The notes under the pieces were generated by a model, which worked only from the letters and a program-made list of their open reading frames with translations, did no database searches and was not told the origin of the DNA. A stretch of DNA of 64,000 nucleotides from Octopus vulgaris (lineage: Eukaryota). This document shows, in pieces, positions 16,201-62,948 of this stretch. Both the position numbers and the translations under genes were made by a program. Positions within the stretch are counted from its first letter, which is position 1, and every line of letters begins with the position of its first letter. The stretch spans positions 12,772,001 through 12,836,000 of the forward strand of contig OX597839.1 in the NCBI GenBank assembly GCA_951406725.2, read 5' to 3'.

Positions 16201-16460
16201 GAAGAACCTGAGAGACCTGCATGGGGTGGATACAGATGTCTTTAAAATGAAGCTGGATCTCTTCCTGTCAGGTGTCCCAGATGAACCAACTTCACGGCAG
16301 GAGGGGCAGATGAGGGCAGCTGCATCAAACTCTCTCATGCACCAAATAGCAGTTGCTAGAAAGCCTCCATGAAGTGAAACCAAGTAGCAACACCAAATGG
16401 CGGTGCCCCAGCATGGCCACAGCTCATAAGCTGGAACTAGAATCAATCAATCAATCAATC
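13205..16460 (+). mobile_element. CR1-clade LINE ORF2 (APE endonuclease + RT), disrupted
   Basis: EN motifs LNIRGL, LTETHL, YRPP, GDFN, LDLCF in ORF 13270-14859. Frameshift in an A-run near 14800. RT in ORF 15029-16372 has YADT instead of YADDT. (ATCA)n tail. Confidence 0.92.
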
Positions 16461-20580: not shown

Positions 20581-23500
20581 TCACTTGTCCTGCCTGGTCT
20601 TCTCACGTACAGAATATTTCCAAAGGTCTCGGTCTCTGGTCATTTCCTCAGTGAGGCCTAAAGTTCGAAGGTCGTGCTTCACCACCTCGTCCCAGGTTTT
20701 CCTGGGTCTACCTCTTCCACGGGTTCCCTCAACTGCCAGGGATTGGCACTTTCTCACACACCTATCTTCATCCATTCTCGCCACATGACCATACCAGCGC
20801 AATCGTCTCTCTTGCACACCACAACTGATGCTTCTTAGGTACAACATTTCTCTCAAGGTGCTAACGCTCTGTCGAGTATGTACACTGACATTACACATCC
20901 ATCGGAGCATACTGGCTTCATTCCTCACGAGCTTACGCATGTCCTCAGCAGTCACGGCCCATGTTTCGCTGCCATGTAGCATGGCTGTTCGTACACACGC
21001 ATCATACAGTCTGCCTTTTACTCTGAGCGAGAGGCCTTTAGTCACCAGCAGAGGTAAGAGCTCCCTAAACTTTGCCCAGGCTATTCTTATTCTAGCAGTT
21101 ACACTTTCAGCGCACCCACCCCCACTACTGATTTGGTCACCTAGATAACGGAAGCTATCAACTACTTCTAGTTTTTCCCCCTGGAAAGTGACGGAAGTTG
21201 TTTTCTGCAGATTTTCGGAGGTTAATGCTCCCGAGCATCTGCCACATACAAAAACTATCTTCCCAGTTAGCCTACCTTTGACATTGCTGCACCTCTTATG
21301 TGTCCATAGCTTACACTGGGTACATCTTATAGAGTTTCTACCTACACCTTTTCTACAGATCGAGCAGGGCCATCTTCCTGAAGATATTTGTGGATTGTCT
21401 ACCTTTCTACTTATTAGTACTTTGGTTTTAGCTAGGTTGACTCTAAGGCCCCTTGATTCTAAACCCTCCTTCCACACCTGGAACTTCTCCTCCAGTTCTG
21501 ATAGTGACTCAGCAATAAGAGCAAGGTCGTCAGCGTAGAGGAGCTCCCAGGGACAGCCTGTCTTGAATTCCTCCGTAATTGCCTGGAGTACTATGATAAA
21601 TAGGAGGGGGCTGAGTACTGAACCCTGGTGGACCCCAACCTCTACTTTGAATTCTTCTGTGTACATGTTGCCAACCCTAACCTTACTTACGGCATCTCTG
21701 TACATGGCTTGCACAGTCCTCACCAGCCATTCATCTTATCCCTAGTTTCCTCATTGACCACCAGATAAGGGATCGGGGGACCCTATCAAAAGCTTTCTCC
21801 ATGTCAACGAAAGCCAGGTACAGGGGCTTATCTTTGGCTAGGTATTTCTCCTGCAGCTGCCTTACCAGGAATATAGCATCAGTGGTACTTTTCCCTGGCA
21901 CGAACCCAAACTGCATCTCATCTAAACTAACTCTCTCTCTAATTAGTTGGGCTATGACCCTCTCCGTAACCTTCATTACTTGATCCAACAGCTTGATACC
22001 TCTGTAATTATTTGTATCTAGGGCATCACTTTTACCTTTGTAGCAGTTGACTAGTATGCTGCTGCACCAGTCATTGGGTATGACTCCTTCGTGTATCACC
22101 TGGTTGACTATACGGGTGACTAGGTTATAGCCGACACTGCCAGATATTTTGAGCATCTCTGCAGTAATTCCTGATGGGCCTGGGGCTTTCCCTGTCTTCA
22201 TGCTTCTAATTGCCTTAGCTACCACGGAACTATCAACTCGGATAGCTGGTCCCTCTGTAGGGTCAACATTCGGCAGACTCTCTTTATCCCATTCATTTTC
22301 CTCATTCAGTAACCTTTCATAGTGGCGTCTCCAAGCTTCTCTCTTTGCATCCTCATTTAGCGCAAGTGAACCATCCTCCATGCGAACACATTTCTCTCCT
22401 ACCACATCACGATTCTCTCTCACACACTGTCTTGCAACACGAAATACCTCAAGTCTTTCATCCTCACGGCGCAGGACATTGGCAAATTTTCTCTTATCTG
22501 CTTCCCCTCTGGCTAGATAGACCTGTCTCCTAGCTTCCCTTCTGGCAGTCTGATACTCTTCCCTGCTACCACCGTTCTTCCAGGCCTTCCAAGCCTGTTT
22601 CTTTTGTCTAATAGCCCTGTCAACAATATTGTTCCACCACCACGTTATTTTGGGTCTTAAGGGGACTTTGCACCAGCCACAGATCTGGTCAGCGGCTTTC
22701 AGCAGGTTGTCCCTCAGAAACGTCCAGTTGTCTTCTACCCCATGTGTAGCTATACCCCCTTCCACTTCGTCAAAGGCTTCAAGTAACATATCTCTAAATC
22801 TCTGTCCATTCGCAGGGGCTTTAAGCTTCCAGACCCTTCTTCTCCATGTTGGTCGTCTTCTAGTCGCCCTCTTAGTCCTGATCCTAAAGTCACTAACTAC
22901 CAGTCTATGTTGTGGGGTGCATTCTTCGCCTGGGAAGGTTTTGGCATTTATAAGCAGCCATCTTTCCCTTTTTCTGGCAAGGATGTAGTCGATTTGGCTA
23001 GTATGCCGGCCCGATCGGTAGGTGACCAGGTGGCTTGTTGGTTTCCTGAAGTTAGTGTTGCAGACCATAAGACTATTCGCATCGCAGAACTCCAGCAGCC
23101 TGGTTCCCTCCTCGTTGCGGGAACCATAACCGTAGCCTCCATGTACGCCATGGAAGCCCCCAGCATGTCGTCCAACATGCCCATTGAAATCACCAGCCAC
23201 AAAGAGAAGGTCCCTGTCGTTCGTCGATGAGGTGGTCTGCAGTAGGGTGTCATAGAAACTGTCTTTCTGTCCATCGGGTAGCCCTGGCTGAGGGGCATAG
23301 GCCGATATAATGGTTGCTAATCTATTATGAAGCACTATTCTAATCTTAAGTATTCTGTCACTTACTCTGATTACCTCAATTACTCTATCTATCCATTTCT
23401 CAGCGATAAGTATACCCACGCCACCAACCCCGTCAGTGTTCCCTGCCCAGAAAATCTTGTACCTGTGTTCCTTGCCTGTGAGGACCCTAGCAGATCCTCC

Positions 23501-23704
23501 TCTCCACCTTATTTCTTGCATACAACATACATCAACACGTCTCCGTTCAAGCATCTCGACTATCTCGCCAGACCTACCTTTCAATGTGCCAACGTTGAGG
23601 GTGCCCACCCTGAGGGTGTGGGAGGTGTGGGCCTCTGAGACCCTGGGATGAGGGACAGCAGTGTTATATACCTGAAAAGAAAGCTTGCATTTGCCAGATA
23701 TCAT
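20581..23704 (-). CDS. RTE endonuclease/reverse transcriptase (frameshift near 21735)
   Basis: Complete APE and RT motifs with intact YADD, plus a C4HC3 finger after the RT palm. Confidence 0.85.
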
Positions 23705-23867
23705 ACTGAGACTCTAGACTACAACCTGCATAAATTTCACAGGTTTTGCGCTATATGATCACAATAAACCCTACATAGGGGTGCGGGGGGGGGGGGTCAA
23801 GAAAGATAGAAAACAGAAACTTCCGGTTCTGGTGGATGGGTGGGATGGAGGGCGGGCGGGGTCACCT

Positions 23868-24528: not shown

Positions 24529-25403
<875 letters not shown>

Positions 25404-25404
<1 letters not shown>

Positions 25405-25791
25405 CTAGCAGTATCGCCCGGCGTTGCTCAGGTTTGTAAGGGAAATAACTATAAAGCATTTTTAGAGAGTTATAGCCAAAAAATAGCAAAAAATGGGAAA
25501 AAAATGATGGTAAATTTTTTTTTGAGAGTTAAAAAAGGATGGAGTTGCGTCCCCTAGACAGTTTGTGGTTCATGTTTCTGATTCTGGACCCCATGTCGAA
25601 TTTATCGATTCTTTTCAGAACTGGGGGAACTTTTCAAAATTTTGGGTGCGTTAGTTTTGAATTATGACATTGGGCTATATGTGTGTCAAGTTTCATCAGA
25701 ATCGGTTGAAAGCCGTGGTCAGGGTGAGGGTACAAGCAAACAGACACACAGAAACACGCAGAGACAAACTGCCGTTTATATATAGAGAGAT
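25404..25791 (+). mobile_element. Non-autonomous Helitron-like element (Lep1-like termini)
   Basis: Starts actagcagtatcgcccggcgttgctc and ends aagtttcatcagaatcgg...acagac...tttatatatagagagat. Second copy at 52973-53359. Confidence 0.55.
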
Positions 25792-25910
25792 ATACATATA
25801 TATATATATACATACATATATATATATATACATATATATCTATATACACATATATATATACATATATATATATACATACATATATATATATACATATATA
25901 CATATATATC

Positions 25911-25974
<64 letters not shown>

Positions 25975-25980
25975 CATATA

Positions 25981-26270
25981 AAATTTAAAGGACTGACCAC
26001 TAAAAGTGGACGGTCAATATGCTAGATATAGACGTCAAAATCTCTATTTTCCACGAAGAATGTGTTCTCAAATAAAAACTCAGCACAACCCAAAGTGTAA
26101 AAAATAAGCAAGAGAAGTGAAAATATATATATATAAGAAAATAGTTGACAATAGAATAAATTATTATCTTTTGAACCTCACTAGCTTACAGGTGTTTTCA
26201 CTATAAGATGTGGTGGACTCATATTTGAGTGCTTCTGTAATACCCTTCAGCTTCATCAGAGCTTGGAACA
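25981..26270 (-). mobile_element. Older relative of family E with a degenerate hammerhead (26183-26263)
   Basis: Shares aaggactga..cac..aaagtggac.gtcaa.atgctagatatagacgtcaaa with 51308. Minus strand reads agct-CTGATGA...GAAAAC-acct-GTA-agct. Duplicate at about 53551-53840. Confidence 0.6.
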
Positions 26271-26459
26271 TGAACTGCTTTTTGTTTGGGAAGACAAATA
26301 CATTTAAGCATATTTGGAGGAAAGTATTACTGATGTGGATGCATATGTAGTTCATTTTAAGATGTTTTTCGTCTCTTCTCTCTCTAGGTAACTTCATTTC
26401 CTCCTCACTTGTTCCTGTAACTCTTTTTCTTTCTCCTATTGTATAATATGCACACTTAA

Positions 26460-26680
26460 CCCTTTTGTTACCAACCTGGCCAAAACCGCCTCTGGCTCTG
26501 TAGTACAAATGTCTTGTTTTCCTAAGTTTTGAATTAAAATCTTCCACCAAACCTTAGTCACAATTTATGTTCCTAACACTAGCTTAATGGTAACTAAGTT
26601 ATTTTATTAAATTCTTTGTTATATTTAAAATAATTGAAAGAAACACAGAGCATCTCAACAGAAATATGGTAACAAAAGGG
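26460..26680. mobile_element. piggyBac-type MITE
   Basis: TTAA target sites (26456-26459, 26681-26684) and cccttttgttacca/tggtaacaaaaggg terminal inverted repeats. Duplicate at 54030-54250. Confidence 0.85.
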
Positions 26681-26753
26681 TTAAATATATACATTCATGT
26701 TTGTGGAATCAACTCATAATAGATATTTTGTTCATCTTTCATTTTTATTCCAG

Positions 26754-27232
26754 AGAAGATGAAACTGATGCTGTACCATTAAACAATTCTGAAACCAATA
26801 CAGAGCCTGTATGCTTTGAAACGTCCATCAGTAACTCTGATACATTACCTAGTCTTAGTGAAACTCCAGAAACTAAAGCAGTGCCCATAATTAATGAAAA
26901 TGACAGAAATGATGACGATTCAATACCCAAGCCTACAAAAGAAAGCCACAATAAAATAAGGGCAATACCCAAATCTAATGAAGATAGCGACAGTAAAACT
27001 GATGCAGTACCTCAACCTTGTGATTATCCTAGCAAGAATACTCCTGCCATGTTGGTCCGTGAAGGAACTCGTAGCTATAATATGCAAGCAACACTCCTTC
27101 CCAGAGAGGATCCCAGAAAAGAATTTGACCCAAGATGCCATAAAGATGATCTATTTCACAACCAGCCAGACTCCTCTTATAATGATCCTCATTCAGAAGG
27201 AGCAAAAGCTCTAAACATGTTTTCACAATGCT
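26754..27232 (+). CDS. Exon 2: acidic region with periodic IBM-like motifs
   Basis: Pyrimidine tract plus cag acceptor at 26753; open frame EDETDAVPL...ETKAVPI...KIRAIPK...KTDAVPQ. Confidence 0.7.
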
Positions 27233-29586
27233 GTATGCTCCAATCTTTTTTATATTTCCTTAGATAAATTCATCATCATTACTTTGCATTGCTTCCCTAT
27301 CATAATTTCTTAATTATCATTACTTATTATGCTGTCATCATTACTTTTCCATCGCTTATTTATCATCATTACTCTCTTATTATTATTTACAAATATTCTT
27401 TGTAATCATTACTTTCCCGTTATTACTTCATCATCATTACTTCTCCATCAGTCTTTGTCAATCATTACTTTGTCATCATTGCTATTTTTACTTTGTTAGC
27501 AACACTTCGTCATTATTATTTTGTTATCCTTACTGTTTCATCCTGAATTACCTACATCATCTACATCATCGCTTTGTTTTCCCTTTGTCATAATTCATCA
27601 TCATCTGATTTGGAAACTTACTTGTACCAATACAACTCTCCCATTCCAAGTATCCCGAATAAGCCATATGGCATGCACATCTGGCCTGGGTTTTAATCAC
27701 CTTGGTCTTTCATGAGCTAAAATATCTCACTTGCACTTGCCACAACTACAGATAAAAGCAGTATTTTGCTAACAAGACAATCCTGATCATTAACACTTTG
27801 TTGTTTGTTCATTCACTCAGCATCTAGTGGCATTTGTCACTGATTCAAGAAATTAGTTTGCCAAAATAATTCACATTCACCATGCTGCATCCCATAACTT
27901 CAGTGTACCCTGGCTCAGGTAGTTTCATGCTATTTAGGCCTTATCTGGGACTCTGACAGGTGCTACTACTCAGGCCAAAGTAGACCTGGGAACAACAAAC
28001 AGTGGCTAACAGAGGTGGTTCCACATTCCTCAAAACCCTGGTGGTCCTGAACTACTGGATGGGGTTTCACTCTTTAGCATTTAAACTGGCCATATCTAAC
28101 TCAAATATTCTTATTTCTTTATTGCCCTCAAGGGGCTAAACATAGAGGGGACAAACAAGGACAGACAAAGGAATTAAGTCGATTATATCAACCCCAGTGC
28201 GTAACTGGTACTTAATTTATCGGCCTCGAAAGGATGAAAGGCAAAGTCGACCTCGGCGGAATTTGAACTCAGAACATAACCAGTCTGCCAAATGAAGCAC
28301 TAGCTCTGCTCATTCTGTATGTGATTTCCTGGTCCAGTCATGCATTATCTGAGATGGTACTGCCTAGGTATTTGAATGCTTTGCATTGGGCCAGCCTTTC
28401 ATATCTAATAGTGATGTTTTCTTCTGTTACAGGCACATGTAGGTTCTCCACAGGTTGGTAAAGGCATTTGGTTTTTCTAATGTTAATCTTTAAGCTGAAT
28501 TTTTGTGCAGCTCTAGCAAAGTTACCTACCAGATTCTGCATATCTTCAGCACTGTAGGCAACTGGTGCACTATCATCAGCATCTTTTGCAATAGGGCCTT
28601 TATAATGCATGTCTTTGCTTTATATTGTGCAGCCTTGAACAGATCAACATCATGCCACATCTAGATGTAAGCCCCACTCCAACTTCCTTAAAGGCAACTT
28701 CCAACACTGCTGTGAGATAGAGGGAGAACAGTGCTGGAGCAAGTATGCACCCCTGACTAACTTCATTTATCACTGCAACCTCACTTGAGGTATTACTATT
28801 TTGTACTATAAATGCTTGCATTCCTTCGTGTAGGACTGATACTGTGTCAAAAGCCATTGTGACATCTATGAAAACTACATACATAGGCATATTCAGCTCA
28901 ATGCATTTTTCCTGAATTTTGCATAGACAGAAGATCATATCCACAGTGCTTCTGCAATGGAAGCCACACTGAGTCTCAGGTAAGACAGATATACTCATTT
29001 AGTCTGTTTAATAGAATATGAGCCAAGATCTTCCCAGCTATTGATAGAAGAGATATTCCTCAGTAGTTTCCAGAGTTCACTTTACAACCTGTTTTGAAGA
29101 CAAGAATGATGCCTGTGTCTTTCCAGTCTTGTGGAACCGTTTCCGTCTTCCAGATCTGGAGCACAGTGCTATACAGGCTTTTAATAATCTCTACACCTCC
29201 ATGCTTCCAGATTTCAGTGGGTATTTACTTTCGTTCAGTTGTTTGATTACGTCATTGAATTGATTGTAAACAGGTTTGTCATCTAAGGATTGGATGATTA
29301 GCTGTTGCATAACCTTCTTGAGAGTGTCATAGTCCATTGATACTTGGGATATTAAGTAGGCTGTCAAAGTGACTGGCAAATCTATCAAGGATCTCCAGGT
29401 TTTCCTGGAATATCGTTTGGCCACCAAGACCTATGAGTTTTGTTGCGCCTCTACTCTGTGGCTCGCATACCATTCAAAGTCCTGAATAACATGTTTTCAT
29501 ATCATTTTTATCAGCATAATGCTGTAGCTCTTCAGGGTGTTTGTACTTAATCATTTAGATCACCTGTGAACTAAACCCCCATACTT

Positions 29587-29633
<47 letters not shown>

Positions 29634-30683
29634 AGTAAAGGGTAATGACCTCCTTCAGTCATGAATGACCATGGGATTGCACCTAGGTTCCCCTCTGAGG
29701 CACAAGTCTGGTCAAGTTTTTTTGTGGAAAACCAGCTGTCACCCATGCATACCAGCCCCCCTCTCCGCACCACTGATGTTGTCTAAGGGAAAGGTAATGA
29801 CTAATACAGCTTGGCACCAGTGATGTCACAACTCATTTCTACAGCTGAGTGAACTGGAGCAATGCGAAATAAAATGCTTTGCTCAAGAAAACAACACAGA
29901 GCCCGATTCAGGAATTGAAGTCATTACCTCATGATTGTGAACTTGATGCTCTAACCACTGGGCCATACATACACATGCACACAAACGGGCTTCTTTCAGA
30001 TTTTATCTATCAAATCTACTGAAAAGATTTTGGTTGACCTGGGGCTATATTAGGAGAGTCTTGTCCAAAGTACCTTGCACTGGGATTGAACTTGGGACTA
30101 TGTGGTTGAGAAGCAAACTTCTTAATACACAGCCATGCCTATGTATATATTATATTCTCAAAAATTTATGCTCTAATGCTAAGTTAGAATTTTATACATT
30201 TATTCTAGCAAATATTAATATTGGAATGAGCAATGTATTCATTGGTAACGCTAATGTCACAAATGTATACCCTTCAGAAGATATGAGGATAAATTGCATG
30301 AATCATAGGGAGAAATTCAGCAAATATTTCAGTAAGTAAACGCAGTTTCTCTTTGTTGATTTCATATTAATCTTTTATTTGTTTCAGTTATTAGACTGTT
30401 GCAATGCCGGGGCACTGCCTTGAGGGATTTTAGTCGAACTATTCGACCCCCAGCACTCATTTCCTTTTTAAACCTCTTTACTCTTTTACTTGTTTCAGTC
30501 ATTTGACTGTGGCCATGCTGGAGCACCACCTTTAGTCGAGCAAATTGACCCCAGGACTTATTCTTTGTAGGCCTAGTACTTATTCTATCAGTCTCTTTTG
30601 CCGAACCGCTAAGTTACAGGGACGCAAACACACCACCATCGGTTGTCAAGTGATGTTGGGGAGACAAACACAAACACATAAAT

Positions 30684-30732
<49 letters not shown>

Positions 30733-33700: not shown

Positions 33701-36700
33701 GACATCAAATTGCTGGACCATGTGATGAAAGTCATAGAAAGAGTCATAGCTCAATTAATTAGGAACAGAGATAGTGTAGATGAGATGCGGTTCAGATTTG
33801 TGCCAGGCAGGAGCATGACTGATGCCATAATCCTGGTTAGACAACTGCAGGAGAAATATTTGGCTTAAAATAAACCTCTGTACCTGGCTTTTGTCAACAT
33901 GAAGAAAGCCTTTGACAGGGTGCCCTGCTCCCTTATCTGGTGGTCAATGTGAAAGCTAATAGTGAATGAGTGTTTAGTTAGAGTGGAACAAGCCATGTAC
34001 AGGAATGCTGCCAGTAAGGTGAAGGTTGGCAATGAATTCAGTGTATAGGTGAGAGTCCACCAAGGCTCAGTTCCCAGCCCCCTCCTGTTTATCTTAGTCC
34101 TCCAGGCCTTAACAGAGGAATTCAAGATTGGTTGTCTTTGGGAGCTTCTCTATGCTGATGACCTTGTTCTTATAGCTGAATCACTGACTGACCTAGTGAA
34201 GCAATTTCGGATCTAGAAACAAGATCTAGAATCTAAGAGCCTTAGGGTTAATTTAGCAAAAACCAAAAGTCCTAGTAAGTAGGGAAACAGATAAATCACA
34301 AATCCCTTCTAGGAGATGGTCCTGCTTGGTATGTAAGAAGAGCGTAGGTAGAAACTCCTCATGCAAACTTTGAACACATAAGAGGTGCAGCAGTGTCAAA
34401 GGAAGGTTAACTAAGAATATAGTCTTTGTGTGTGGCAAATGTGCAGGTACAATAAGCACTAAAAATATGCAGACAATAGACTCCCTCAAATGTTTGGGTG
34501 GATCATTAGAAGTAGTAGTATATGCATAACAGAGTGTAAATGATTTAAGGGGAAAACTGGGTATAAGAGGCATCATATGTTGTGTGCAAGAGAGAAGACT
34601 GTGCTGATTTGGTCATGTGATGCCTATGGATTAGGATAGCTGCATAAAGAAGTGCTGAGCTCTAAATGTGGAGGAACATATGGAAGGAGTAGACCCAGGG
34701 AGACATGGAATGATGTGGTGAGAAAAAATGGTGAAGATGATATATATTTAATACACACAATGTATGTTTTTATGTGCTACTATTAGTTTCACATGCTGAG
34801 GATTTGCCAGTCAGTGTTTTATAACATGTCTGGTGTCCTAGCACAATCATCAGACAGTGCCAACATGGCATAAGTGTCTGATGACTGTGCTGGGACACTG
34901 GATGTGTTATAAAACACTGATTGGCATGTTCTCAGTACATGAAACTAATAGTAGCACACAGAAACATATATTATGTTTTTAGTAAATATTATTTATCTCT
35001 CCCTGGATGGAGTACTTTTTTTGTTGATCTTACCATTCTGAAACAGTACAGTATATGTGGTCAGTTGAGGATGGGGGACAAGAGAGAGATGTATGGAATT
35101 GGGAGCAGATGATAAGTGAGCATGGCATCAGCAACACTTACATTATTTGGAAAATGCAATGGAAAGAGTACAGTGAAATTGTCATGGAGAGTGGAATGTC
35201 CAGCATTTAAGATAGAGTGTGAAATTTGATGGCGATTTGACTGTTATTTCTAAACAAAAAAGTAAATATGAAACATTTCAATATAAATTCTTAAGAATCA
35301 TGGAAATATTTTTGCAGAGTCTAATACAATACTGACTGAGAAACACCTCAACAAAATATCCATATACTTAGGGAATAAATGGAAGCGTGTTGGTAAGTAT
35401 AAAATATACATTGCTTTAGATGTTTTGCTTCTATCATATCTTTATTTTTTACTTGCTTCAGCCATTATGTTGTTGCCATGCTGGAGCAGCACATCGAAAA
35501 ATTTTTAGTCGGATGAATCCAATACTTTCTTTTCTTTTTTTTTTTCTTTAAGCCCGGTGCTTATTCTATCAGTCACTTTTGCTGAACTGCTAAGTTACAG
35601 AGATGCAAACACACCAACCCTGGATGACAAGCAGTGGTGGAAACATGCACACACACGTGTGACAGGCTTCTTTCAGTTTCCATCTACCAAATGCACTCAC
35701 AAGGTTTTGGTTGGGCTGGGGCTATAGTAGAAGACACTTGGCCAAGGTCCCATGCAGTGGGAATGAACCTGGAATCATGCAGTTGGGAAACAAATCTTCT
35801 TGCCACCTAGCCACCCCTACACCTATCTAACTACAAAATAATGTTTAGTGAGTGATACGATACTTAATGTGATGAAGAAAAGATTTCAGTTAAAGTTGTT
35901 CTTGCTAGGAGGAGAAGAAAAGAATCGTCACCCTTTTGCTACCATACTTTTGTTGGAACACTTCTTTTGTTGTAATTAATGTTGAAAATAATGAATTTAT
36001 GAATATAACTGTTTTGTTATTAAGCTTCTTCTTTATGACTTTAACCCTCCAATGTGGAGTATGTGTGTGACCTCCTTCGGTCACGAATGACCACGGAATT
36101 GCACCTAGAAAGTTACCCTCCAAGGCACAAGTCTGGGCAAGGTTGTTTATGGAAGACCAGCAGTCGCCCATGCATATCACCCTTCCCTCTCCACATCACC
36201 GATGTTATCCAAGGGAAAGGCAAAGGCCGATACAGCTTGGCACCATTGACGTTGCAGCTCATTTATTAACGTGCAAGTGGCTGAGCACTCCACAGATACG
36301 TGTACCCTTAACGTAGTTCTCGGGGAGATTCAGGGTGACACAGAGTGTGACAAGGCTGGCCCTTTGAAATACAGGTATAACAGAAACAGGAAGAAAGAGT
36401 GAGAGAAAGTTGTGGTGAAAGAGTACAGAAGGGATCGCCACCACCCCCTGCAGGAGCCTCGTGGTGCTTTAGGTGTTTTCGCTCAATAAACACTCACAAT
36501 GCCCGGTCTGGGAATCGAAACCGCGATCCTACGACCGTGAGTCCACTGCCCTAACCACTGGGCCATTGCGCCTCCACAATGTGGAGTATAGGCCACTTAT
36601 AATTGAAATCCTTGTCGCATAATTTTTCGCTTCTGTACTTTGCCATGAATGTCCCCCTTTCTCTAGTTCCTTTTGTGTTGATCTATGCCATGAGTTCTTA

Positions 36701-39205
36701 GGCCTGCCTTTCTTTCTATATTCATCCGGATTCCACTGTAAAACACTTTCCGCTACATTTGGTGTGTCTTTTCAAATTGTGCTACCAATCCACTTCCACT
36801 TTTGTTAACCCTTTCGTTACTATATTTCTGACCAAAATACACCCCTCATGAGTTTCAATTAAATTCTAAAATAATCATGAATCTAGGCTTGTTTCATTAA
36901 ATAACTGTAACTTTTTTACTTATCAACATATTAATGTGATATTTGGAACATAATTAAAGAAAGGGTTCTTAATCAATTCTATTGCATAACTTTTGTCTCA
37001 AAGTGACTTTAATTACAGGTAAATCCAGGTAAATTGAGCAAAAGGTAAAAATATTAAAATTTTGTTTAAACATCACCACAGAAAATGAATCATCAGCTAA
37101 TATTCAAATGGGTATGCAACAAAATTTTGATAAAGAAGAATTGTGCACATTACTATTTCATCAGTTGAATTTAATGCACAACAGGTGTACCATAAAGGTG
37201 GAATAAATTGAAATACTTGAATCCAGAACTAAAGAAATCGGTCAAAAAATAATATACGGCCCTGGTTATGGTATGGAAGTGATAAATTCCAGACCACATC
37301 GTTCCCTAGGCCATGCTGACTAACATTATTTTCCCTGTATAAAAACTAAATCCACGCAGTACCCAGTATTTGCTTCACAAATTTTCCGAAATTTGAACCC
37401 CCATTTTGTGTTTGTTTACGTTCTGCGTAAGTTTGTTTCCACATTGATCACTTCAAACAATAACATCCGGACCACATCATACCCTAAGCCATGCTGACTT
37501 AACATTAGTTTCCCTGTATAAAAACTAAATCCACAACAGTACCCAGTATTTGTTTCACAAATTTTCCAATTCGGAATCAATGCTTGATAACATGAAACTC
37601 CTATCCATTTTCAAAGTTGAAGAAAAATCGATGCCGAAAAAATGTGGAAAAAAATCTCCCAAAATTCAGGGAATTAAAATTACACGTCGATCTTTGTACA
37701 AAATTGTAGATGAACTGTTTACGAAGCATAATCACGTGTTTTCACGAATGTAATAAAGAGATTTGCTCTGATATTCTCATTTAAATATGAATAGGTAAAT
37801 TCGGGCGGGTTTGGTCACATTAACCAAAATTTTTTTCGAGCGGCTTTGGGCGGTTTGGTAACGAAAGGGTTAAATCGAAACTTAATTTGTTCTTTGCCAT
37901 ATTGTGTTCAGGCCATCAAATTTTAGGAAAGTTGAATGGGCTAATCACCCGTGCAATGGATTTTCACATTGATTACGAAAACACTGATAATTGGCAAAAT
38001 TTGTAGCATAGAACCAAAGTCAGTATCAAAAAGTTAGTGTTAACGAAATCGAATTCAAGACGAAGGGAGACAACTTCGAAATTGTAACTAATCAAAGTTT
38101 GAAATAATACAATGAGGAGATAAAGACATTATTAGCTAGAGAGGCTTAGTGAGTACAGTGGCAGCTGTGGACATATTTTGGGTACAACCTTTATGCTAAG
38201 CGTCAGTCACATCATCATGATCTTCCCTTATTTGGTAATATAGATCTTTTCACTTTTCCTACATTAACTGAATATGGCCAGTTTCCAGGTTTATCTGACC
38301 TATATATATTTTCTTCTGGATGGGATGGGATGGTGGTCCATCACAGGATTACTCATTATTGCCTGCTGAGTGGATTGGAGGGTTAATGTGAAAGGAAGTA
38401 TATGACTTAATAGAGCTGTTGCTGTTTAGTTATGTATTTAGGAGTGGTTGTAATTTACTTAGGGAATTTATGATATCTGAGGGGCAGCTGATGATGGAGA
38501 GATTTTGGATTATTCCAGCAGTTGTTGGAATTGCAGAAGCAACAGCAACTGTTAGTACAACGGCTACAGAAGAAAACAGAAAATATATCAAAACGATGTG
38601 TTATAATACTATTCCACAGCCATACCAACAATCCAGGAATCGAAACCACAATCTTACAATCACGAGTCCAACACTTTAACTACTTAGCCACATGCCTCCA
38701 CACTGCATCTTATGAAGTTCTCCATGTAATATCTATGTACCTTTAGTGCCATTTTCTGTATGACGTATCTATGTTTAGGTCATTTAGCTTATGTGCTTGT
38801 CCACATCACTTATAATCATTTCAGTATCACTAATTATTATCTCGATTCTTTCTATTTTCAGTCCCCAGATTCTGCTTGTTTCCATTTCCAGATCTTCATA
38901 TTTGGATATTTTTTTTTTCATTATCTATTTTTGTCCTTCGGAATTGATATATGACTTACTATTATTATTCTTCTTGTCAATGATATAATATTTTATTTTC
39001 AGGTCGGGATCTAGAAATTAAAAACGCTGAGCTGGAAAACATAGAAGCAAACAACCAAAATAATGTTGAAGAACAAAGTTTTCAAATGTTAAACAGATGG
39101 TTACAGATTTCCAAGCCGGACACATGTACAAGTGGCAATTTAGCTAATGCTCTCTTTGAGGCTGGATGTTATGATTCAATTCAATTTTTACCATTAGAGG
39201 AGTGA
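26754..39205 (+). CDS. imd: IMD/RIPK1-like adaptor, copy 1 (exons 26754-27232, 30209-30331, 35318-35392, 39003-39205; exon 1 not found in window)
   Basis: AG/GT-bounded exons with compatible phases join in frame to give a caspase-site/IBM-like array, a RHIM-like motif and a death domain. The exon-2 donor (T|GTATGC at 27232) is the weakest junction. The symbol is assigned from domain architecture only. Confidence 0.75.
28105..28277 (-). mobile_element. tRNA/Nin-like SINE
   Basis: B-box-like gagttcaaattcc and gcctttcatcctttcgaggccgataaattaagtacc on the minus strand. Duplicate at about 55675-55846. Confidence 0.6.
28280..29500 (-). pseudogene. Degenerate RTE/BovB-like LINE RT fragment
   Basis: LPETQCGF, STVDMIF, QEKCIE, QGCILAPALF and FKYLGS motifs in broken frames. 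Duplicate at about 55850-57070. Confidence 0.8.
29635..29968 (-). mobile_element. tRNA-derived SINE (second family)
   Basis: tggcccagtggttagagc head on the minus strand; body related to 36063-36576. Confidence 0.6.
30209..30331 (+). CDS. Exon 3: RHIM-like motif (NINIGMSNVFIGNANVTNV)
   Basis: ttattctag acceptor and A|gtaagt donor, 123 nt, phase 1-1; VFIG-x-x-N resembles the RHIM core. Confidence 0.75.
30477..30900 (-). mobile_element. tRNA-derived SINE, full length
   Basis: Reverse complement of 31495-31890; a more decayed copy follows at about 30930-31225. Confidence 0.85.
31495..31890 (+). mobile_element. tRNA-derived SINE, full length
   Basis: A-box tggctgtgtgg, B-box gggttcagtccc, internal TA/TG repeat and CR1-like tail gaaacaagtaaaagagtaaagag. 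Duplicate at 59051-59446. Confidence 0.88.
31900..34725 (+). pseudogene. Decayed RTE LINE (same family as 19764-24490)
   Basis: Colinear EN-RT-finger similarity with many stops and frameshifts. Duplicate at about 59456-62280. Confidence 0.88.
34763..34968. repeat. Long imperfect palindrome (MITE-like hairpin)
   Basis: tgtgctactattagtttca...tcagaca / tgtctga...tgaaactaatagtagcaca arms of about 95 bp. Duplicate at about 62319-62524. Confidence 0.8.
35318..35392 (+). CDS. Exon 4: death domain N-terminal helices (LTEKHLNKISIYLGNKWKRVG)
   Basis: tttgcag acceptor and G|gtaagt donor, 75 nt; the LGxxWKxVG pattern is typical of death domains. Confidence 0.85.
35440..35825 (-). mobile_element. SINE, diverged
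   Basis: Reverse complement similarity to 31495-31890. Confidence 0.7.
36063..36576 (-). mobile_element. tRNA-derived SINE with 13-bp target-site duplication
   Basis: TSD caatgtggagtat at 36050-36062 and 36577-36589; head tggcccagtggttagggc...ggtttcgattccc on the minus strand. Confidence 0.85.
36809..37869. mobile_element. Non-autonomous piggyBac element
   Basis: TTAA sites (36805-36808, 37870-37873) and ccctttcgttac/gtaacgaaaggg terminal inverted repeats; internal duplication near 37293 and 37471. Confidence 0.85.
39003..39205 (+). CDS. Exon 5 (terminal): remainder of the death domain
   Basis: ttttcag acceptor; RDLEIKNAELENIEANNQNNVEEQSFQMLNRWLQ...GNLANALFEAGCYDSIQFLPLEE*, stop TGA at 39203-39205. 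Confidence 0.88.
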
Positions 39206-45347: not shown

Positions 45348-45373
45348 ATGGATGGATACAAAGAAATACATCG
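45348..45373 (+). CDS. Exon 1 (coding part) of IMD-like copy 2: MDGYKEIH(R)
   Basis: Strong Kozak context accaccATGG; phase-2 donor CG|gttagt matches the phase-2 acceptor of exon 2 (CG+A = Arg). Confidence 0.65.
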
Positions 45374-46880: not shown

Positions 46881-48758
<1,878 letters not shown>

Positions 48759-48911
48759 AAAATAAATATAAGAGAGTGGTCACTATATGGCTCACTCTAG
48801 CACCAGTTAATCCAAAAGGTTTCAACTACAAAAATACATGTTTCCCATGAAAGTCAGTACGATTGTTAGCTCACACGGACAGGGCAAATAAAAAATAACA
48901 AATACAGATTA

Positions 48912-48993
48912 TTTTGGGACAATTGTTTCGCTATTAATGAATTAAATGTAATTTTACTTACAATAAAATCCACTTGTAGCTCTTCAGCCAAAA
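48912..48993 (-). ncRNA. Type I hammerhead ribozyme (family D)
   Basis: ttttgg-CTGAAGA-gcta...tagc-GAAAC-aatt-GTC-ccaaaa on the minus strand. Confidence 0.87.
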
Positions 48994-49444
48994 CTATCTG
49001 GATGAAATCCACTCAATCACACGCCAGATTTTACCATAACGATAAATACGCGTGTGGTTCAATTGATTACATCCGACGTTATAATTCAAATGCCCCAACT
49101 AACAGCGCGCCAAATTTTCACGGAAAACAAATACAGCATTTAGAAATAAATGCAGCATAATTATAATTAATTAATAAGGGTGAGAGAATTAGATACTAAT
49201 TTAATAGTATATCTATTCTACACCAAGTGGCCTAGTGCTCCGAGAAACCTGGATTATTATAATATTTTATAATATATTATAATATTTTTACAAAATAAAT
49301 ATAAGAGAGTGGTCACTATATGACTCACTCTAGCACCAGTTAATCCAAAAGGTTTCAACCACAAAAATACATGTTTCCCATGAAAGTCAGTACGATTGTT
49401 AGCTCACACGGACAGGGCAAATAAAAAATAACAAATACAGATTA

Positions 49445-49526
49445 TTTTGGGACAATTGTTTCGCTATTAATGAATTAAATGTAATTTTACTTACAATAAA
49501 ATCCACTTGTAGCTCTTCAGCCAAAA
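49445..49526 (-). ncRNA. Type I hammerhead ribozyme (family D)
   Basis: Same motif in the second unit. Confidence 0.87.
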
Positions 49527-49975: not shown

Positions 49976-50057
49976 TTTTGGGACAATTGTTTCGCTATTA
50001 ATGAATTAAATGTAATTTTACTTACAATAAAATCCACTTGTAGCTCTTCAGCCAAAA
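49976..50057 (-). ncRNA. Type I hammerhead ribozyme (family D)
   Basis: Same motif in the third unit. Confidence 0.87.
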
Positions 50058-51204: not shown

Positions 51205-51235
<31 letters not shown>

Positions 51236-53544: not shown

Positions 53545-56500
53545 CATATAAAACTTAAAGGACTGACCACTAAAAGTGGACGGTCAATATGCTAGATATA
53601 GACGTCAAAATCTCTATTTTCCACGAAGAATGTGTTCTCAAATAAAAACTCAGCACAACCCAAAGTGTAAAAAATAAGCAAGACAAGTGAAAATATATAT
53701 ATATAAGAAAATAGTTGACAATGGAATAAACTATTATCTTTTGAACCTCACTAGCTTACAGGTGTTTTCACTATAAGATGTGGTGGACTCATATTTGAGT
53801 GCTTCTGTAATACCCTTCAGCTTCATCAGAGCTTGGAACATGAACTGCTTTTTGTTTGGGAAGACAAATACATTTAAGCATATTTGCAGGAAAGTATTAC
53901 TGATGTGGATGCATATGTAGTTCATTTTAAGATGTTTTTCGTCTCTTCTCTCTCTAGGTAACTTCATTTCCTCCTCACTTGTTCCTGTAACTCTTTTTCT
54001 TTCTCCTATTGTATAATATGCACACTTAACCCTTTTGTTACCAACCTGGCCAAAACCGCCTCTGGCTCTGTAGTACAAATGTCTTGTTTTCCTAAGTTTT
54101 GAATTAAAATCTTCCACCAAACCTTAGTCACAATTTATGTTCCTAACACTAGCTTAATGGTAACTAAGTTATTTTATTAAATTCTTTGTTATATTTAAAA
54201 TAATTGAAAGAAACACAGAGCATCTCAACAGAAATATGGTAACAAAAGGGTTAAATATATACATTCATGTTTGTGGAATCAACTCATAATAGATATTTTG
54301 TTCATCTTTCATTTTTATTCCAGAGAAGATGAAACTGATGCTGTACCATTAAACAATTCTGAAACCAATACAGAGCCTGTATGCTTTGAAACGTCCATCA
54401 GTAACTCTGATACATTACCTAGTCTTAGTGAAACTCCAGAAACTAAAGCAGTGCCCATAATTAATGAAAATGACAGAAATGATGACGATTCAATACCCAA
54501 GCCTACAAAAGAAAGCCACAATAAAATAAGGGCAATACCCAAATCTAATGAAGATAGCGACAGTAAAACTGATGCAGTACCTCAACCTTGTGATTATCCT
54601 AGCAAGAATACTCCTGCCATGTTGGTCCTAAAGGAACTCGTAGCTATAATATGCAAGCAACACTCCTTCCCAGAGAGGATCCCAGAAAAGAATTTGACCC
54701 AAGATGCCATAAAGATGATCTATTTCACAACCAGCCAGACTCCTCTTATAATGATCCTCATTCAGAAGGAGCAAAAGCTCTAAACATGTTTTCACAATGC
54801 TGTATGCTCCAAACTTTTTTATATTTCCTTAGATAAATTCATCATCATTACTTTGCATTGCTTCCCTATCATAATTTCTTAATTATCATTACTTATTATG
54901 CTGTCATCATTACTTTTCCATCGCTTATTTATCATCATTACTCTCTTATTATTATTTACAAATATTCTTTGTAATCATTACTTTCCCGTTATTACTTCAT
55001 CATCATTACTTCTCCATCAGTCTTTGTCAATCATTACTTTGTCATCATTGCTATTTTTACTTTGTTAGCAACACTTCGTCATTATTATTTTGTTATCCTT
55101 ACTGTTTCATCCTGAATTACCTACATCATCTACATCATCGCTTTGTTTTCCCTTTGTCATAATTCATCATCATCTGATTTGGAAACTTACTTGTACCAAT
55201 ACAACTCTCCCATTCCAAGTATCCCGAATAAGCCATATGGCATGCACATCTGGCCTGGGTTTTAATCACCTTGGTCTTTCATGAGCTAAAATATCTCACT
55301 TGCACTTGCCACAACTACAGATAAAAGCAGTATTTTACTAACAAGACAATCCTGATCATTGACACTTTGTTGTTTGTTCATTCACTCAGCATCTAGTGGC
55401 ATTTGTCACTGATTCAAGAAATTAGTTTGCCAAAATAATTCACATTCACCATGCTGCATCCCATAACTTCAGTGTACCCTGGCTCAGGTAGTTTCATGCT
55501 ATTTAGGCCTTATCTGGGACTCTGACAGGTGCTACTACTCAGGCCAAAGTAGACCTGGGAACAACAAACAGTGGCTAACAGAGGTGGTTCCACATTCCTC
55601 AAAACCCTGGTGGTCCTGAACTACTGGATGGGGTTTCACTCTTTAGCATTTAAACTGGCCATATCTAACTCAAATATTCTTATTTCTTTATTGCCCTCAA
55701 GGGGCTAAACATAGAGGGGACAAACAAGGACAGACAAAGGAATTAAGTCGATTATATCAACCCCAGTGCGTAACTGGTACTTAATTTATCGGCCTCGAAA
55801 GGATGAAAGGCAAAGTCGACCTCGGCGGAATTTGAACTCAGAACATAACCAGTCTGCCAAATGAAGCACTAGCTCTGCTCATTCTGTATGTGATTTCCTG
55901 GTCCAGTCATGCATTATCTGAGATGGTACTGCCTAGGTATTTGAATGCTTTGCATTGGGCCAGCCTTTCATATCTAATAGTGATGTTTTCTTCTGTTACA
56001 GGCACATGTAGGTTCTCCACAGGTTGGTAAAGGCATTTGGTTTTTCTAATGTTAATCTTTAAGCTGAATTTTTGTGCAGCTCTAGCAAAGTTACCTACCA
56101 GATTCTGCATATCTTCAGCACTGTAGGCAACTGGTGCACTATCATCAGCATCTTTTGCAATAGGGCCTTTATAATGCATGTCTTTGCTTTATATTGTGCA
56201 GCCTTGAACAGATCAACATCATGCCACATCTAGATGTAAGCCCCACTCCAACTTCCTTAAAGGCAACTTCCAACACTGCTGTGAGATAGAGGGAGAACAG
56301 TGCTGGAGCAAGTATGCACCCCTGACTAACTTCATTTATCACTGCAACCTCACTTGAGGTATTACTATTTTGTACTATAAATGCTTGCATTCCTTCGTGT
56401 AGGACTGATACTGTGTCAAAAGCCATTGTGACATCTATGAAAACTACATACATAGGCATATTCAGCTCAATGCATTTTTCCTGAATTTTGCATAGACAGA

Positions 56501-57779: not shown

Positions 57780-57902
57780 CAAATATTAATATTGGAATAA
57801 GCAATGTATTCATTGGTAACGATAAAGTCACAAATGTATACTCTTCAGAAGATATGAGGAGAAAATGCGTGAATCATAGGGAGAAATTCAGCAAATATTT
57901 CA
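57780..57902 (+). CDS. RHIM-like exon, copy 2 (NINIGISNVFIGNDKVTNV)
   Basis: Same splice sites as 30209-30331, with 7 substitutions. Confidence 0.7.
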
Positions 57903-58238
57903 GTAAGTAAACGCAGTTTCTCTTTGTTGATTTCATATTAATCTTTTATTTGTTTCAGTTATTAGACTGTTGCAATGCCGGGGCACTGCCTTGAGGGATT
58001 TTAGTCGAACTATTCGACCCCCAGCACTCATTTCCTTTTTAAACCTCTTTACTCTTTTACTTGTTTCAGTCATTTGACTGTGGCCATGCTGGAGCACCAC
58101 CTTTAGTCGAGAAAATTGACCCCAGGACTTATTCTTTGTAGGCCTAGTACTTATTCTATCAGTCTCTTTTGCCGAACCGCTAAGTTACAGGGACGCAAAC
58201 ACACCACCATCGGTTGTCAAGTGATGTTGGGGAGACAA

Positions 58239-58289
<51 letters not shown>

Positions 58290-61200
58290 TAAATACGACG
58301 GGCTTCTTTTCAGTTTCCGTCTACAAATCCACTCACAAGGCTTTGGTCAGCCCAAGGCTATAGCAGAAGACACTTGCCCAAGATGCCACGCAGTGGGAAT
58401 GAACCCAGAACCATCTGGTTGGTAAAGCAAGCTACTTACCACACAGCCACTCCTGCACTTAGTAGGAGTGGCTGTGTGGTAGTTATTCTCTCAGCGCTCT
58501 TTTGTTGAACTTCTAAGTTACAGGGACATAAACACACCAACACTGGTTGTCAGTCAGTGTGGGTGGCGGGGGGGGAAACAAGCACAGTCACAAACACACA
58601 TGCGCATGCATATATACACAATGAGCTTCTTTCAGTTTCTGTCTACCTGTCTACCAAACCTCACAAAGCTTTGGTGGGCTTGAGGCTAAAGCAGACGACA
58701 CTTGCTCAAAGTGCCATGCTATGGGACTGAACTTAGAATCATTTGGTTTGGAAACAAACTTCTTACTACACAGTCATACCTGTAGATTTTGTATAATATT
58801 TTTGTAAGGCTTTCAATGTCATGAAATTGCATTTGACACCCTAGCCCTTAACTGATGAGGAGATGGTGTCCCATGTCCTTTTTCTGTTCATTTGTTTATT
58901 ACGCTACATGTTTGACTCCTGAAAATATTATTCATGTAACACAATGCACTCCTTATTTTTTTGTACCTATACACACACACACACATGTATATAAGTGAAT
59001 AAAATGACAGTGAAGTGTATGCAGGTTGAAACCTATTTGTACTTATACATAGGCGCAGGAGTGGCTGTGTGGTAAGTAGCTTGCTAACCAACCACATGGT
59101 TCCGGGTTCAGTCCCACTGCGTGGCATCTTGGGCAAGTGTCTTCTGCTATAGCCCCGGGCTGACCAATGCCTTGTGAGTGGATTTGGTAGACGGAAACTG
59201 AAAGAAGCCTGTCGTACATATGTATATATATGTGTGTGTATATGTCTGTGTTTGTCCCCCTAGCATTGCTTGACAATCGATGCTGATGTGTTTACGTCCC
59301 CATCACTTAGCGGTTCGGCAAAAGAGACCGATAGAATAAGTACTGGGCTTACAATGAATAAGTCCTGGGGTCGATTTGCTCGACTAAAGGTGGTGCTCCA
59401 GCATGACTGCAGTCAAATGACTGAAACAAGTAAAAGAGTAAAGAGTATACGATATGTCGGTCAAGCATACATGCAAGCTTGCTTTCTAGATGCAAAATGC
59501 TATCCCCCATCCCTGTGTCTCCCTGGCCCACACCTTCCACACCCTCAGATTTGCCACACACATTTAATGGGGCACATTGATAGGTTGAAAGGTAAGTTTG
59601 GGGAGATTGTTGAGATGCTTGAACAGAGGAATGTAGAGTGTGTTGCATCTGAGAAGTAAGGTGCAGAGAAGGTTCTGCTAGGTTCCTCATAGGCAAAGAC
59701 CATAGGTATAAAATCTTCTGGGTAGGAAACAGTGATAGGGTTGGGGGTTGTCCTTGGGAGCTTCTGTACACTGATCACCTTGTTCTTATAGTTGAATCAC
59801 TACCTGACCTAGTGAAGCAATATCAGGTCTAGAAACAAGATCTGGAATCTAAGGGCCTTAGGGTTAATTTTGAAAAAACCCCAACTTATTTTTTAAAATG
59901 GATTGATAAGGTAATCGAGGTAGTCAGAGTGTGTGATAGAATACTTAGGCTTAGACTGGTGTTGCAATGTGGAGCAGCAACCATTAGCTTGGGCTATTCC
60001 CCTCAGCTGAGACTACCTGATGAACAGAAAGACCGATTTTATGACACCCTTTTGCAGACCACCTCATTGATGAATGTCAGGGACCTTCTCTTTGTAGCTG
60101 GCAACTTCAATGGGCATGTTGGACAACATCTTGGTAGCTTCCATGCCATGCATGGTGGCAACAGATTTGGTTCCTGTAATGAGGAGGGAGCCAGGCTGCT
60201 GGAGTTCTGTGATTCAAATGACCTTATGATCTACAATACTAATTTCAGGAGACCTCCCAGTCACCTGTTCACCTACCAATCTAGAGGGTACACTAGTCAA
60301 GTTGACTACATTCTTGCCAGAAAATGGGGAAGATGGCTACTTATAAATGCCAAAACTTTCCCAGGTGAAGAATGCACCCCACTCAACATAAGTTAGTTGT
60401 TAAATACTTCAGGATCAGAGATAAATGGCTGCCCAGATGACAACCTGTATGGAAAAGAAAGGTTTAGAAGCTTAAGGATCATCTGAATGGACAGAGATTT
60501 AGAGATGTGTTACTTGAAGGATTTGCTGGAAAAGAGGAAGATATAGCAACATATAATGTGGAAAACAACTGGAGGTTCCTACAAGACAACCTGTTAAAGG
60601 CTGCTGTTTAAATCTGCTAAGTCCCTTCTTGATCTGTGGTGACATGGTGATGTAACAGTATAGTTGACAGGGCCATTAGAGAAGAAAAGAAACAAGCCTG
60701 GAAGTGTGATGGTATCAGGAAACTATATCAGATAGTCAGAAGGAAAGTTATGAGATAGGTGTACTTAGCCAGGGAAAAAGCAGAAAAGAAGTTTGCCAAT
60801 GTTCTGCTACATGAGGACCAGAGACTTGAAGTGTTTCAGATTGCAAGACAGTGTGTGAGAGAAAATTGTGATGTCATAGGAGAGAAATGTGTCTGCATGG
60901 ATGATAGTTTACTTGCATTTAATGATTCTGCTAAGAAAGTGGCTTGGAAATGCCATTATGAAAGGCTGTTAAATGTGGAGAACTAATGGGAGGAGAGTCT
61001 GCCAGATGTTGGCCCTACTGAGGGACCAGCTATCTGAATCGATAGTAACTTGATAGATAAAGCAATTAAAGACATGAAGAGAGGAAAAGTCCCTGGCCCA
61101 TCAGGAATCACTGCTGAGATGCTTAAAATATCTCGAGTAGGATATAGCTTAGTCACTAGTATATTTAATCAGATTGTCCATGAGGGAGTCATACCCAATG

Positions 61201-62873
61201 ATTGGTGTAGCAGCATTATAGTCAACTGCTACAAAGACAAAAGTGATAATTACAGAGACATCAAATTGCTGGACCATGTGATGAAAGTCATAGAAAGAGT
61301 CATAGCTCAATTAATTAGGAACAGAGATAGTGTAGATGAGATGCGGTTCAGATTTGTGCCAGGCAGGAGCATGACTGATGCCATAATCCTGGTTAGACAA
61401 CTGCAGGAGAAATATTTGGCTTAAAATAAACCTCTGTACCTGGCTTTTGTCAACATGAAGAAAGCCTTTGACAGGGTGCCCTGCTCCCTTATCTGGTGGT
61501 CAATGTGAAAGCTAATAGTGAATGAGTGTTTAGTTAGAGTGGAACAAGCCATGTACAGGAATGCTGCCAGTAAGGTGAAGGTTGGCAATGAATTCAGTGT
61601 ATAGGTGAGAGTCCACCAAGGCTCAGTTCCCAGCCCCCTCCTGTTTATCTTAGTCCTCCAGGCCTTAACAGAGGAATTCAAGATTGGTTGTCTTTGGGAG
61701 CTTCTCTATGCTGATGACCTTGTTCTTATAGCTGAATCACTGACTGACCTAGTGAAGCAATTTCGGATCTAGAAACAAGATCTAGAATCTAAGAGCCTTA
61801 GGGTTAATTTAGCAAAAACCAAAAGTCCTAGTAAGTAGGGAAACAGATAAATCACAAATCCCTTCTAGGAGATGGTCCTGCTTGGTATGTAAGAAGAGCG
61901 TAGGTAGAAACTCCTCATGCAAACTTTGAACACATAAGAGGTGCAGCAGTGTCAAAGGAAGGTTAACTAAGAATATAGTCTTTGTGTGTGGCAAATGTGC
62001 AGGTACAATAAGCACTAAAAATATGCAGACAATAGACTCCCTCAAATGTTTGGGTGGATCATTAGAAGTAGTAGTATATGCATAACAGAGTGTAAATGAT
62101 TTAAGGGGAAAACTGGGTATAAGAGGCATCATATGTTGTGTGCAAGAGAGAAGACTGTGCTGATTTGGTCATGTGATGCCTATGGATTAGGATAGCTGCA
62201 TAAAGAAGTGCTGAGCTCTAAATGTGGAGGAACATATGGAAGGAGTAGACCCAGGGAGACATGGAATGATGTGGTGAGAAAAAATGGTGAAGATGATATA
62301 TATTTAATACACACAATGTATGTTTTTATGTGCTACTATTAGTTTCACATGCTGAGGATTTGCCAGTCAGTGTTTTATAACATGTCTGGTGTCCTAACAC
62401 AATCATCAGACAGTGCCAACATGGCATAAGTGTCTGATGACTGTGCTGGGACACTGGATGTGTTATAAAACACTGATTGGCATGTTCTCAGTACATGAAA
62501 CTAATAGTAGCACACAGAAACATATATTATGTTTTTAGTAAATATTATTTATCTCTCCCTGGATGGAGTACTTTTTTTGTTGATCTTACCATTCTGAAAC
62601 AGTACAGTATATGTGGTCAGTTGAGGATGGGGGACAAGAGAGAGATGTATGGAATTGGGAGCAGATGATAAGTGAGCATGGCATCAGCAACACTTACATT
62701 ATTTGGAAAATGCAATGGAAAGAGTACAGTGAAATTGTCATGGAGAGTGGAATGTCCAGCATTTAAGATAGAGTGTGAAATTTGATGGCGATTTGACTGT
62801 TATTTCTAAACAAAAAAGTAAATATGAAACATTTCAATATAAATTCTTAAGAATCATGGAAATATTTTTGCAG

Positions 62874-62948
62874 AGTCTAATACAAAACTGACTGAGAATC
62901 AACTCAACAAAATATCCAAATACTTAGGGAATAAATGGAAGCGTGTTG
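62874..62948 (+). CDS. Death-domain exon, copy 2 (LTENQLNKISKYLGNKWKRVG)
   Basis: Same splice sites as 35318-35392, with 4 substitutions. Confidence 0.8.

Follow-up and report, generated by a model that had tools for sequence, protein, structure and literature searches.

Why does an octopus gene encode, many times over and at regular intervals, what resembles a site known in single copy from the adaptor IMD? The window (the whole stretch of DNA analysed, 64,000 nucleotides from Octopus vulgaris) contains an open frame of this kind. An earlier note had read it as a periodic array of nine IAP-binding motifs behind varied P1 residues, amplified in tandem from an IMD-like caspase site and possibly serving as a tripwire for several proteases. 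The question has three parts: is the frame coding, is the repeat real, and what might its sites be for?

The frame is coding. It forms exon 2 of a spliced octopus gene of 301 aa and is joined to downstream exons in the contigs of all four runs. In each of these runs, whose RNA nature is a guess for three and has no status for one, a single contig spans from exon 2 to the last exon, and the sequence in between has the right length. The exons were located by mapping two octopus protein clusters with a Pfam death domain, found with exon 2 as the query, back to the DNA:

L020:7619, 2.4 kb upstream of the window: exon 1 of gene 1 (ATG, 26 coding bases)
26754..27232, + strand: exon 2, residues 9-168 of 301, with AG/GT ends and contigs of four runs
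30209..30331, + strand: exon 3, which carries the RHIM-like motif (INIG...VFIGN) and opens the death domain
35318..35392, + strand: exon 4, death domain, first part
39003..39205, + strand: exon 5, remainder of the death domain and stop (Pfam Death, E 5e-7)

Exon 2 is preceded by a pyrimidine tract and an AG at 26753, and a GT donor follows 27232. In the contigs, the pieces matching exons 3 and 5 are separated by a gap of 74 bases, which agrees with exon 4. The spliced product is identical to residues 1-301 of P0003, which its source named an Octopus vulgaris RIPK1-like protein. P0003 itself is a 453-aa model in which exon 5 (39003-39205) is joined to the frameshifted exon 2 of a neighbouring gene (gene 2, from 54324). 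This model was rejected: the contigs pass the exon 5 stop and run on into 3' sequence to about 39400, so the fusion is likely an annotation error. A RIPK1 gene with kinase exons further upstream was also considered and rejected, as the contigs hold only 26-291 bases before exon 2 and tblastn with four RIPK kinase domains gave no match at E ≤ 1 in the 224 kb around the gene.

The nine registers of the array have their P1' codons at 26770, 26806, 26842, 26878, 26920, 26962, 27004, 27046 and 27088, in a single frame of the + strand and with spacings of 36, 36, 36, 42, 42, 42, 42 and 42 nt. All nine tetrapeptide pairs listed in the earlier note were found where it had placed them (↓ marks the putative cut):

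26758..26781, + strand: unit 1, DETD↓AVPL (D14↓A15), a canonical site of the IMD type close to the N-terminus
26794..26817, + strand: unit 2, TNTE↓PVCF, decayed copy without an IAP-binding motif
26830..26853, + strand: unit 3, SNSD↓TLPS (D38), Asp retained, motif weak
26866..26889, + strand: unit 4, PETK↓AVPI (K50↓A51), motif intact behind Lys, no caspase site
26908..26931, + strand: unit 5, NDDD↓SIPK (D64), Asp retained, Ser-type motif
26950..26973, + strand: unit 6, NKIR↓AIPK (R78↓A79), motif intact behind Arg
26992..27015, + strand: unit 7, SKTD↓AVPQ (D92↓A93), last Asp site, start of the predicted 209-aa final fragment
27034..27099, + strand: units 8 and 9, KNTP↓AMLV and YNMQ↓ATLL, in register in the DNA, no Pro at P3'

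A repeat search ignorant of the motifs, which scored chains of 36-nt windows at equal distances, kept the best and used 150 codon shuffles as its control, recovered seven of the nine registers, a result matched by none of the shuffles. The chain of five windows fell on units 3-7 (mean identity 0.556 versus at most 0.458 in the shuffles) and the chain of seven on units 3-9 (0.501 versus at most 0.435). A nine-unit chain also exceeded the shuffles (0.461 versus at most 0.400), though its register was shifted; the z-score of this chain, 2.3, is unreliable and the shuffle count (0/150) was used instead. Repeat detection, the check named together with the proposal, was run in this way and bears out the tandem amplification of the site. 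Identity between in-register pairs of units ranges from 28 to 67%, while the background averages 30%. Tandem Repeats Finder did not report the array, and a general repeat search returned two-copy families only, two of them in register. Because the shuffles never reach the chain score, while the pairs have diverged this far and Tandem Repeats Finder misses them, the array is a real but old and decayed tandem repeat. An alternating higher-order repeat of two units, with Asp at units 1, 3, 5 and 7, was considered and rejected: the pairwise identities show none. The sequence A-[V/I/T]-P is present four times in the array, a count reached in 0 of 20000 shuffles, which can be explained by the repeat origin alone.

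The units differ in what they have kept. Pro is found at P3' in units 1 and 3-7 but not in units 2, 8 and 9 (PVCF, AMLV and ATLL). Only four of the nine proposed IAP-binding motifs are canonical A-[V/I]-P; a fifth, in unit 5, is S-I-P, and the motif of unit 3 begins with Thr. DxxD occurs in one register only. The AVPI of unit 4 is the Smac motif.

The protein that carries the array has the architecture of IMD. Like IMD of Drosophila and other arthropods it combines a disordered N-terminus, a D↓A-x-P site near its start, a RHIM-like motif and a C-terminal death domain of the RIPK1/IMD type in a kinase-less protein of similar length. In the predicted fold of the O. bimaculoides protein (P0005) residues 1-198 are disordered and residues 199-294 are helical with a pLDDT of about 90 or more. 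Pfam gave no match in exon 2 or exon 4. The RHIM-like stretch in exon 3 aligns with the RHIM-like stretches of insect and oyster relatives. RIPK1 is the nearest of the solved structures to the death domain (E 9e-12), followed by TRADD (2e-4); arthropod death-domain clusters were its Atlas neighbours at 0.89, which is a lead only. The octopus protein resembles vertebrate RIPK1 in this nearest death domain, in the order RHIM then death domain, and in the RIPK1-like name given to the octopus proteins by databases. It differs in that the gene, its contigs and the surrounding 224 kb contain no kinase domain. The link to IMD that had been proposed thus holds at the level of gene architecture (D↓AxP site, RHIM-like motif, death domain, no kinase). 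With a D↓AxP site as described for IMD, the protein shares the sequence features of that family and by its anatomy would work like IMD. The D-A junction is described as conserved across insect IMDs (PMC6626034).

This combination of features is found across the family. HMMER gave 153 matches, of which 150 were listed, and 44 of these 150 passed a filter on length (150-330 aa) and on position of the death domain (C-terminal). Among these 44 short relatives from the matches listed, the 15 with a RHIM-like motif include 12 that have D↓[A/S]xP, the 29 without it none (Fisher P 2e-8, using a RHIM-like pattern written after viewing the sequences). The bearers include an Anabrus protein named immune deficiency and proteins from a beetle, a stick insect, a leafhopper and a pearl oyster. 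Nine of the 12, among the matches listed, have one site and one has two, the second probably by chance; P0015 has three and the O. bimaculoides protein four. At the octopus Asp sites P4 is D, S, N and S, whereas most other IMD sites have a hydrophobic residue there. The pearl-oyster protein P0153 (Pinctada imbricata), annotated as a hypothetical protein, shows the full IMD signature with LEED↓ACPS, the RHIM-like LQIG and a death domain.

A death-domain tree of 41 rows chosen by us from the matches does not join the octopus proteins to arthropod IMD; its backbone has a support of 40/39 only, and arthropod IMD, vertebrate RIPK1 and the octopus proteins stand in separate clades. P0015 lies near the octopus proteins (90/89) on a long branch. 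The nearest clade to the octopus proteins consists of octopus ankyrin-RING-death proteins, whose linkers also contain tandem repeats. About 50 more death-domain exons are present in the genome (contigs C29, C31 and others of G000; P0012, P0013, P0022 and P0023). Word-index protein searches returned either the two octopus clusters alone or P0015 itself, and no squid, cuttlefish or other octopod orthologue of the array.

What, then, might several sites do in a protein of this kind? In Drosophila, DREDD cleaves IMD after Asp, the new N-terminus binds BIR2/3 of DIAP2, and K63 ubiquitin follows (PMC6626034, PMC9496462). Judging from the sequence we favour, with a probability of roughly 0.55, the reading that the array consists of decayed tandem caspase/IAP-binding sites and that its Asp copies are redundant caspase cuts, any of which would expose an IAP-binding N-terminus. 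The strongest of these sites are likely to be D14↓AVPL and D92↓AVPQ above all, with D64↓SIPK and D38 as weak ones. By analogy with Drosophila IMD, the death domain would recruit FADD and a caspase-8-like protease, the caspase cut would expose A-x-P, an IAP of the BIR3 type would bind and add K63 ubiquitin, and TAK1/IKK/NF-kB signalling would come next. A cut at any site would leave a fragment with the RHIM-like motif and death domain behind an IAP-binding N-terminus, and lysines are present downstream of A93 in the final fragment. Successive cuts would shift the N-terminus to A93 and shed peptides of 24-28 residues that also start with an IAP-binding motif. Units 4 and 6, which have lost the Asp, would probably be silent for caspases, and units 2, 8 and 9 may be debris. 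Recognition of a free A-V-P N-terminus by a BIR domain is textbook knowledge. The genome contains 26 matches to BIR domains. One is BIR3-like, its groove region can be aligned to cIAP1, XIAP and DIAP1, and it belongs to the IAP at G000:C2:40.77 Mb. Five or more multi-BIR IAP genes lie in tandem at 40.77-41.03 Mb of that contig (L024). Cephalopods have 8-11 IAPs (PMC13159474).

The array might instead have grown by neutral slippage, with one working site (D14↓A15 or D92↓A93) as in an ordinary IMD and the remaining units as decaying debris in a disordered linker. We consider this unlikely. Tandem repeats do occur in the linkers of the octopus death-domain proteins P0012, P0022 and P0023, which would suit such an origin. 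A lone non-Asp A-[V/I/T]-P is found in 5 of 43 other short death-domain proteins among the matches listed, and no D↓AxP array is seen in a partial Argonauta relative that lacks the N-terminus; both points also favour slippage. Against it stands the codon pattern of the units. At codon positions 1 and 2 the mean identity in units 1-7 is 0.67 for P1'-P3', 0.62 for P1 and 0.41 for the flanks. The third positions of the flanks are near random (0.38), while the Pro has persisted in six units through three different codons. The P1'-P3' motif therefore looks to be under selection, as far as codon comparison can tell; its conservation value is reached by 5 to 16 of 220 three-column subsets, a count biased by the fact that the motif columns partly set the register.

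The genes next to the array gene bear on the same alternative. Six IMD-like genes lie in tandem at about 12.77-12.93 Mb (G000:C26; 26754-64000 of the window and L008-L017), and the array gene is the first. Gene 1 is an intact type A. Gene 2 is a chimera whose first and last exons are of type B and whose middle is of type A, with a frameshift behind unit 8:

45348..45373, + strand: gene 2 exon 1 (type B)
54324..54801, + strand: second copy of the array exon, in gene 2; loss of one base near 54629 puts the sequence behind unit 8 out of frame
57780..62948, + strand: gene 2 exons 3 and 4
L008:217, just outside the window: gene 2 last exon (type B)

The gene 2 array exon lies within an 11-kb duplication (25003-36026 to 52580-63581, 99.0% identical). 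Gene 4 has a type-A middle, and no last exon was found for it; genes 2 and 4 may be duplicates made by the assembly. Genes 3, 5 and 6 belong to type B; their sites are few, their RHIM is degenerate, and they are possibly decoys. Exon 2 is 41-43% identical in these three genes. In type B the Asp-Ala codons of unit 1 are deleted and unit 4 is missing entirely (a gap of 39 bases). Unit 5 reads N↓AVPK or N↓VVPK, unit 6 reads R↓EIPK, with the Arg kept and the motif gone, and unit 7 reads IETD↓ALPV (L005) or ETN↓ALPP. This comparison of copies suggests that an ancestral D↓A-x-P unit decayed differently in each of them. Slippage would account for the deletion or mutation of most sites in the paralogues, and also for a dN/dS between paralogues of about 0.7 in exon 2 versus 0.44 in the death-domain exon.

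It fits less well with P0015. This protein of 299 aa contains three repeats of about 50 aa, each with a D↓AxP site (IKID↓AMPV, PKTD↓ANPI and LKPD↓AMPI). The repeats are related to one another (0 of 500 shuffles for each pair) but not to the octopus units (score reached by 396 of 500 shuffles). Amplification of the site has thus occurred in a second lineage, where the unit is of a different length and none of the three copies has lost D↓AxP. This speaks for a use of multiple sites and against diversification of P1 as their purpose.

Redundant caspase sites, the reading favoured here, do not explain everything: K↓AVPI and R↓AIPK, both intact, are left unexplained by a model with caspases alone. 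The idea that started this analysis was a multi-protease tripwire, in which caspases would cut at the Asp units and Lys/Arg-specific proteases of host or pathogen at K50↓A51 and R78↓A79, exposing IAP-binding ends and bypassing the receptor. We regard it as doubtful, more so than slippage. Its wide range of P1 residues (D, E, K, R and Q) did not survive closer inspection, because the E, P and Q registers precede units without an A/S-x-P motif and the diversity shrinks to D, K and R. In the six units with an xxP motif P1 reads D, D, K, D, R and D; four Asp in six has a binomial P of 0.002, calculated from the Asp content of the array and ignoring the common ancestry of the repeats. P0015 has Asp at three of three sites. 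P3' alone is more constant than P1 in the six xxP units. In units 3-7 (codon positions 1 and 2) the motif columns P1'-P3' are better conserved than P1 (0.75 versus 0.50, with flanks at 0.45), as a tripwire would have it. On these sequences P1 appears either to be kept as Asp or to be no more variable than the flanks, with no excess of change.

Comparison with O. bimaculoides points in both directions. The window protein differs from its counterpart at 26 of 159 residues; unit 1 reads DEID↓AVPL there and the motif of unit 3 reads SLPS. Across P1-P3' of the six xxP units 1 of 24 positions has changed versus 3.9 expected (P 0.06, for two close species). The two best non-Asp motifs, AVPI and AIPK, both stand behind basic residues and are unchanged, which would suit a tripwire; yet with 0 of 8 positions changed versus 1.3 expected in two octopus species this conservation is not significant (P 0.23). 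The array shows no sign of evolving faster than the rest of the exon (12/96 versus 14/63 changes, two species). The paralogues count against a tripwire too, as they retain KIR while losing the motif behind it and have no unit 4.

NLRP1 and CARD8 are protease tripwires. The octopus array resembles them and Persephone (PMC5823974), a bait region from invertebrate immunity, in being an exposed stretch, predicted to be disordered, before a signalling domain. Unlike such baits it shows no sign of rapid evolution in the two species compared, and its output would need a cut exact to the residue to free the Ala. A bolder version, in which a cephalopod IMD would be a multi-input switch, seems to us equally doubtful: host caspases would act at four Asp sites, and at the two basic ones proteases specific for Lys/Arg, from the host or from microbes, would lead to NF-kB without receptor or caspase-8, while Smac-like peptides would be shed; amplification would have arisen two or more times, in octopus and in the lineage of P0015.

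Short peptides in the cytosol are usually short-lived, and the proteasome cleaves after acidic and basic residues. That the array is mainly a reservoir of short Smac-like peptides, released by caspases or proteasome so that IAPs run low and the cell moves to shut-off or death, would give K↓AVPI and R↓AIPK a role and agrees with the 24-, 26- and 28-residue pieces starting AVPL, TLPS and SIPK that are predicted from cuts at the four Asp sites. A preprint offers a precedent, reporting that the proteasome frees internal IAP-binding motifs which lower cIAP1 and activate caspases (10.1101/2023.02.06.527237), but it deals with forced degradation in human cancer cells. We regard the reservoir as very improbable.

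The octopus protein differs in several ways from the systems it resembles. Arthropod IMD has a single site and characterised IMDs are described with one caspase/IAP-binding site each, whereas the octopus array departs from this with six motifs, four behind Asp and two behind basic residues, in a tandem repeat of 12-14 residues, within a six-gene cluster that includes site-poor paralogues. P0015 and the Pinctada protein P0153 share with it the combination of RHIM, death domain and D↓AxP; the repeats of P0015 differ in length, sequence and constant Asp, and P0153 has one site. Like Smac/DIABLO and Reaper/Hid/Grim the octopus protein contains A-x-P tetrapeptides. In those antagonists the motif stands at the mature N-terminus, while the octopus motifs are internal, ahead of the RHIM-like motif and death domain of a signalling adaptor whose own N-terminus is MDGSS.

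IMD- or RIP-like transcripts have been reported earlier from mussels. A 2023 paper states that the Imd adaptor had not been found in molluscs and reports the same for a PGRP receptor with a cryptic RHIM (PMC9835746). The full signature of site, RHIM-like motif and death domain is seen here in octopus and pearl oyster. In a literature search that covered mainly freely available papers, titles and abstract openings mentioned neither a tandem array of IAP-binding sites in IMD nor an octopus IMD; supplementary alignments could already show multi-site proteins. The presence of tandem arrays with unrelated units in two lineages suggests that site number may be tunable. Extra sites make several roles testable: redundancy, signal timing, release of IAP-antagonist peptides and sensing of other proteases. 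If the basic sites were used, a cytosolic protease sensor would lie inside an NF-kB adaptor.

The window contains a few other features. Intron 2 of the array gene holds an open frame of 79 aa (29194-29430, - strand) with a copy at 56763-56999; nothing in Pfam matches it above the cut-off, and 29245-29492 is covered by one contig of run X2. An AT-rich block at 48500-52500 consists of tandem and inverted repeats of about 530 bases. By eye, the window also carries what we take to be LINE-like elements or fragments with endonuclease/reverse-transcriptase sequences at 13255-16369 (+), 20581-23713 (-), 32277-34600 and 59833-62200, and a possible DNA-transposase fragment at 2331-2726 (+).
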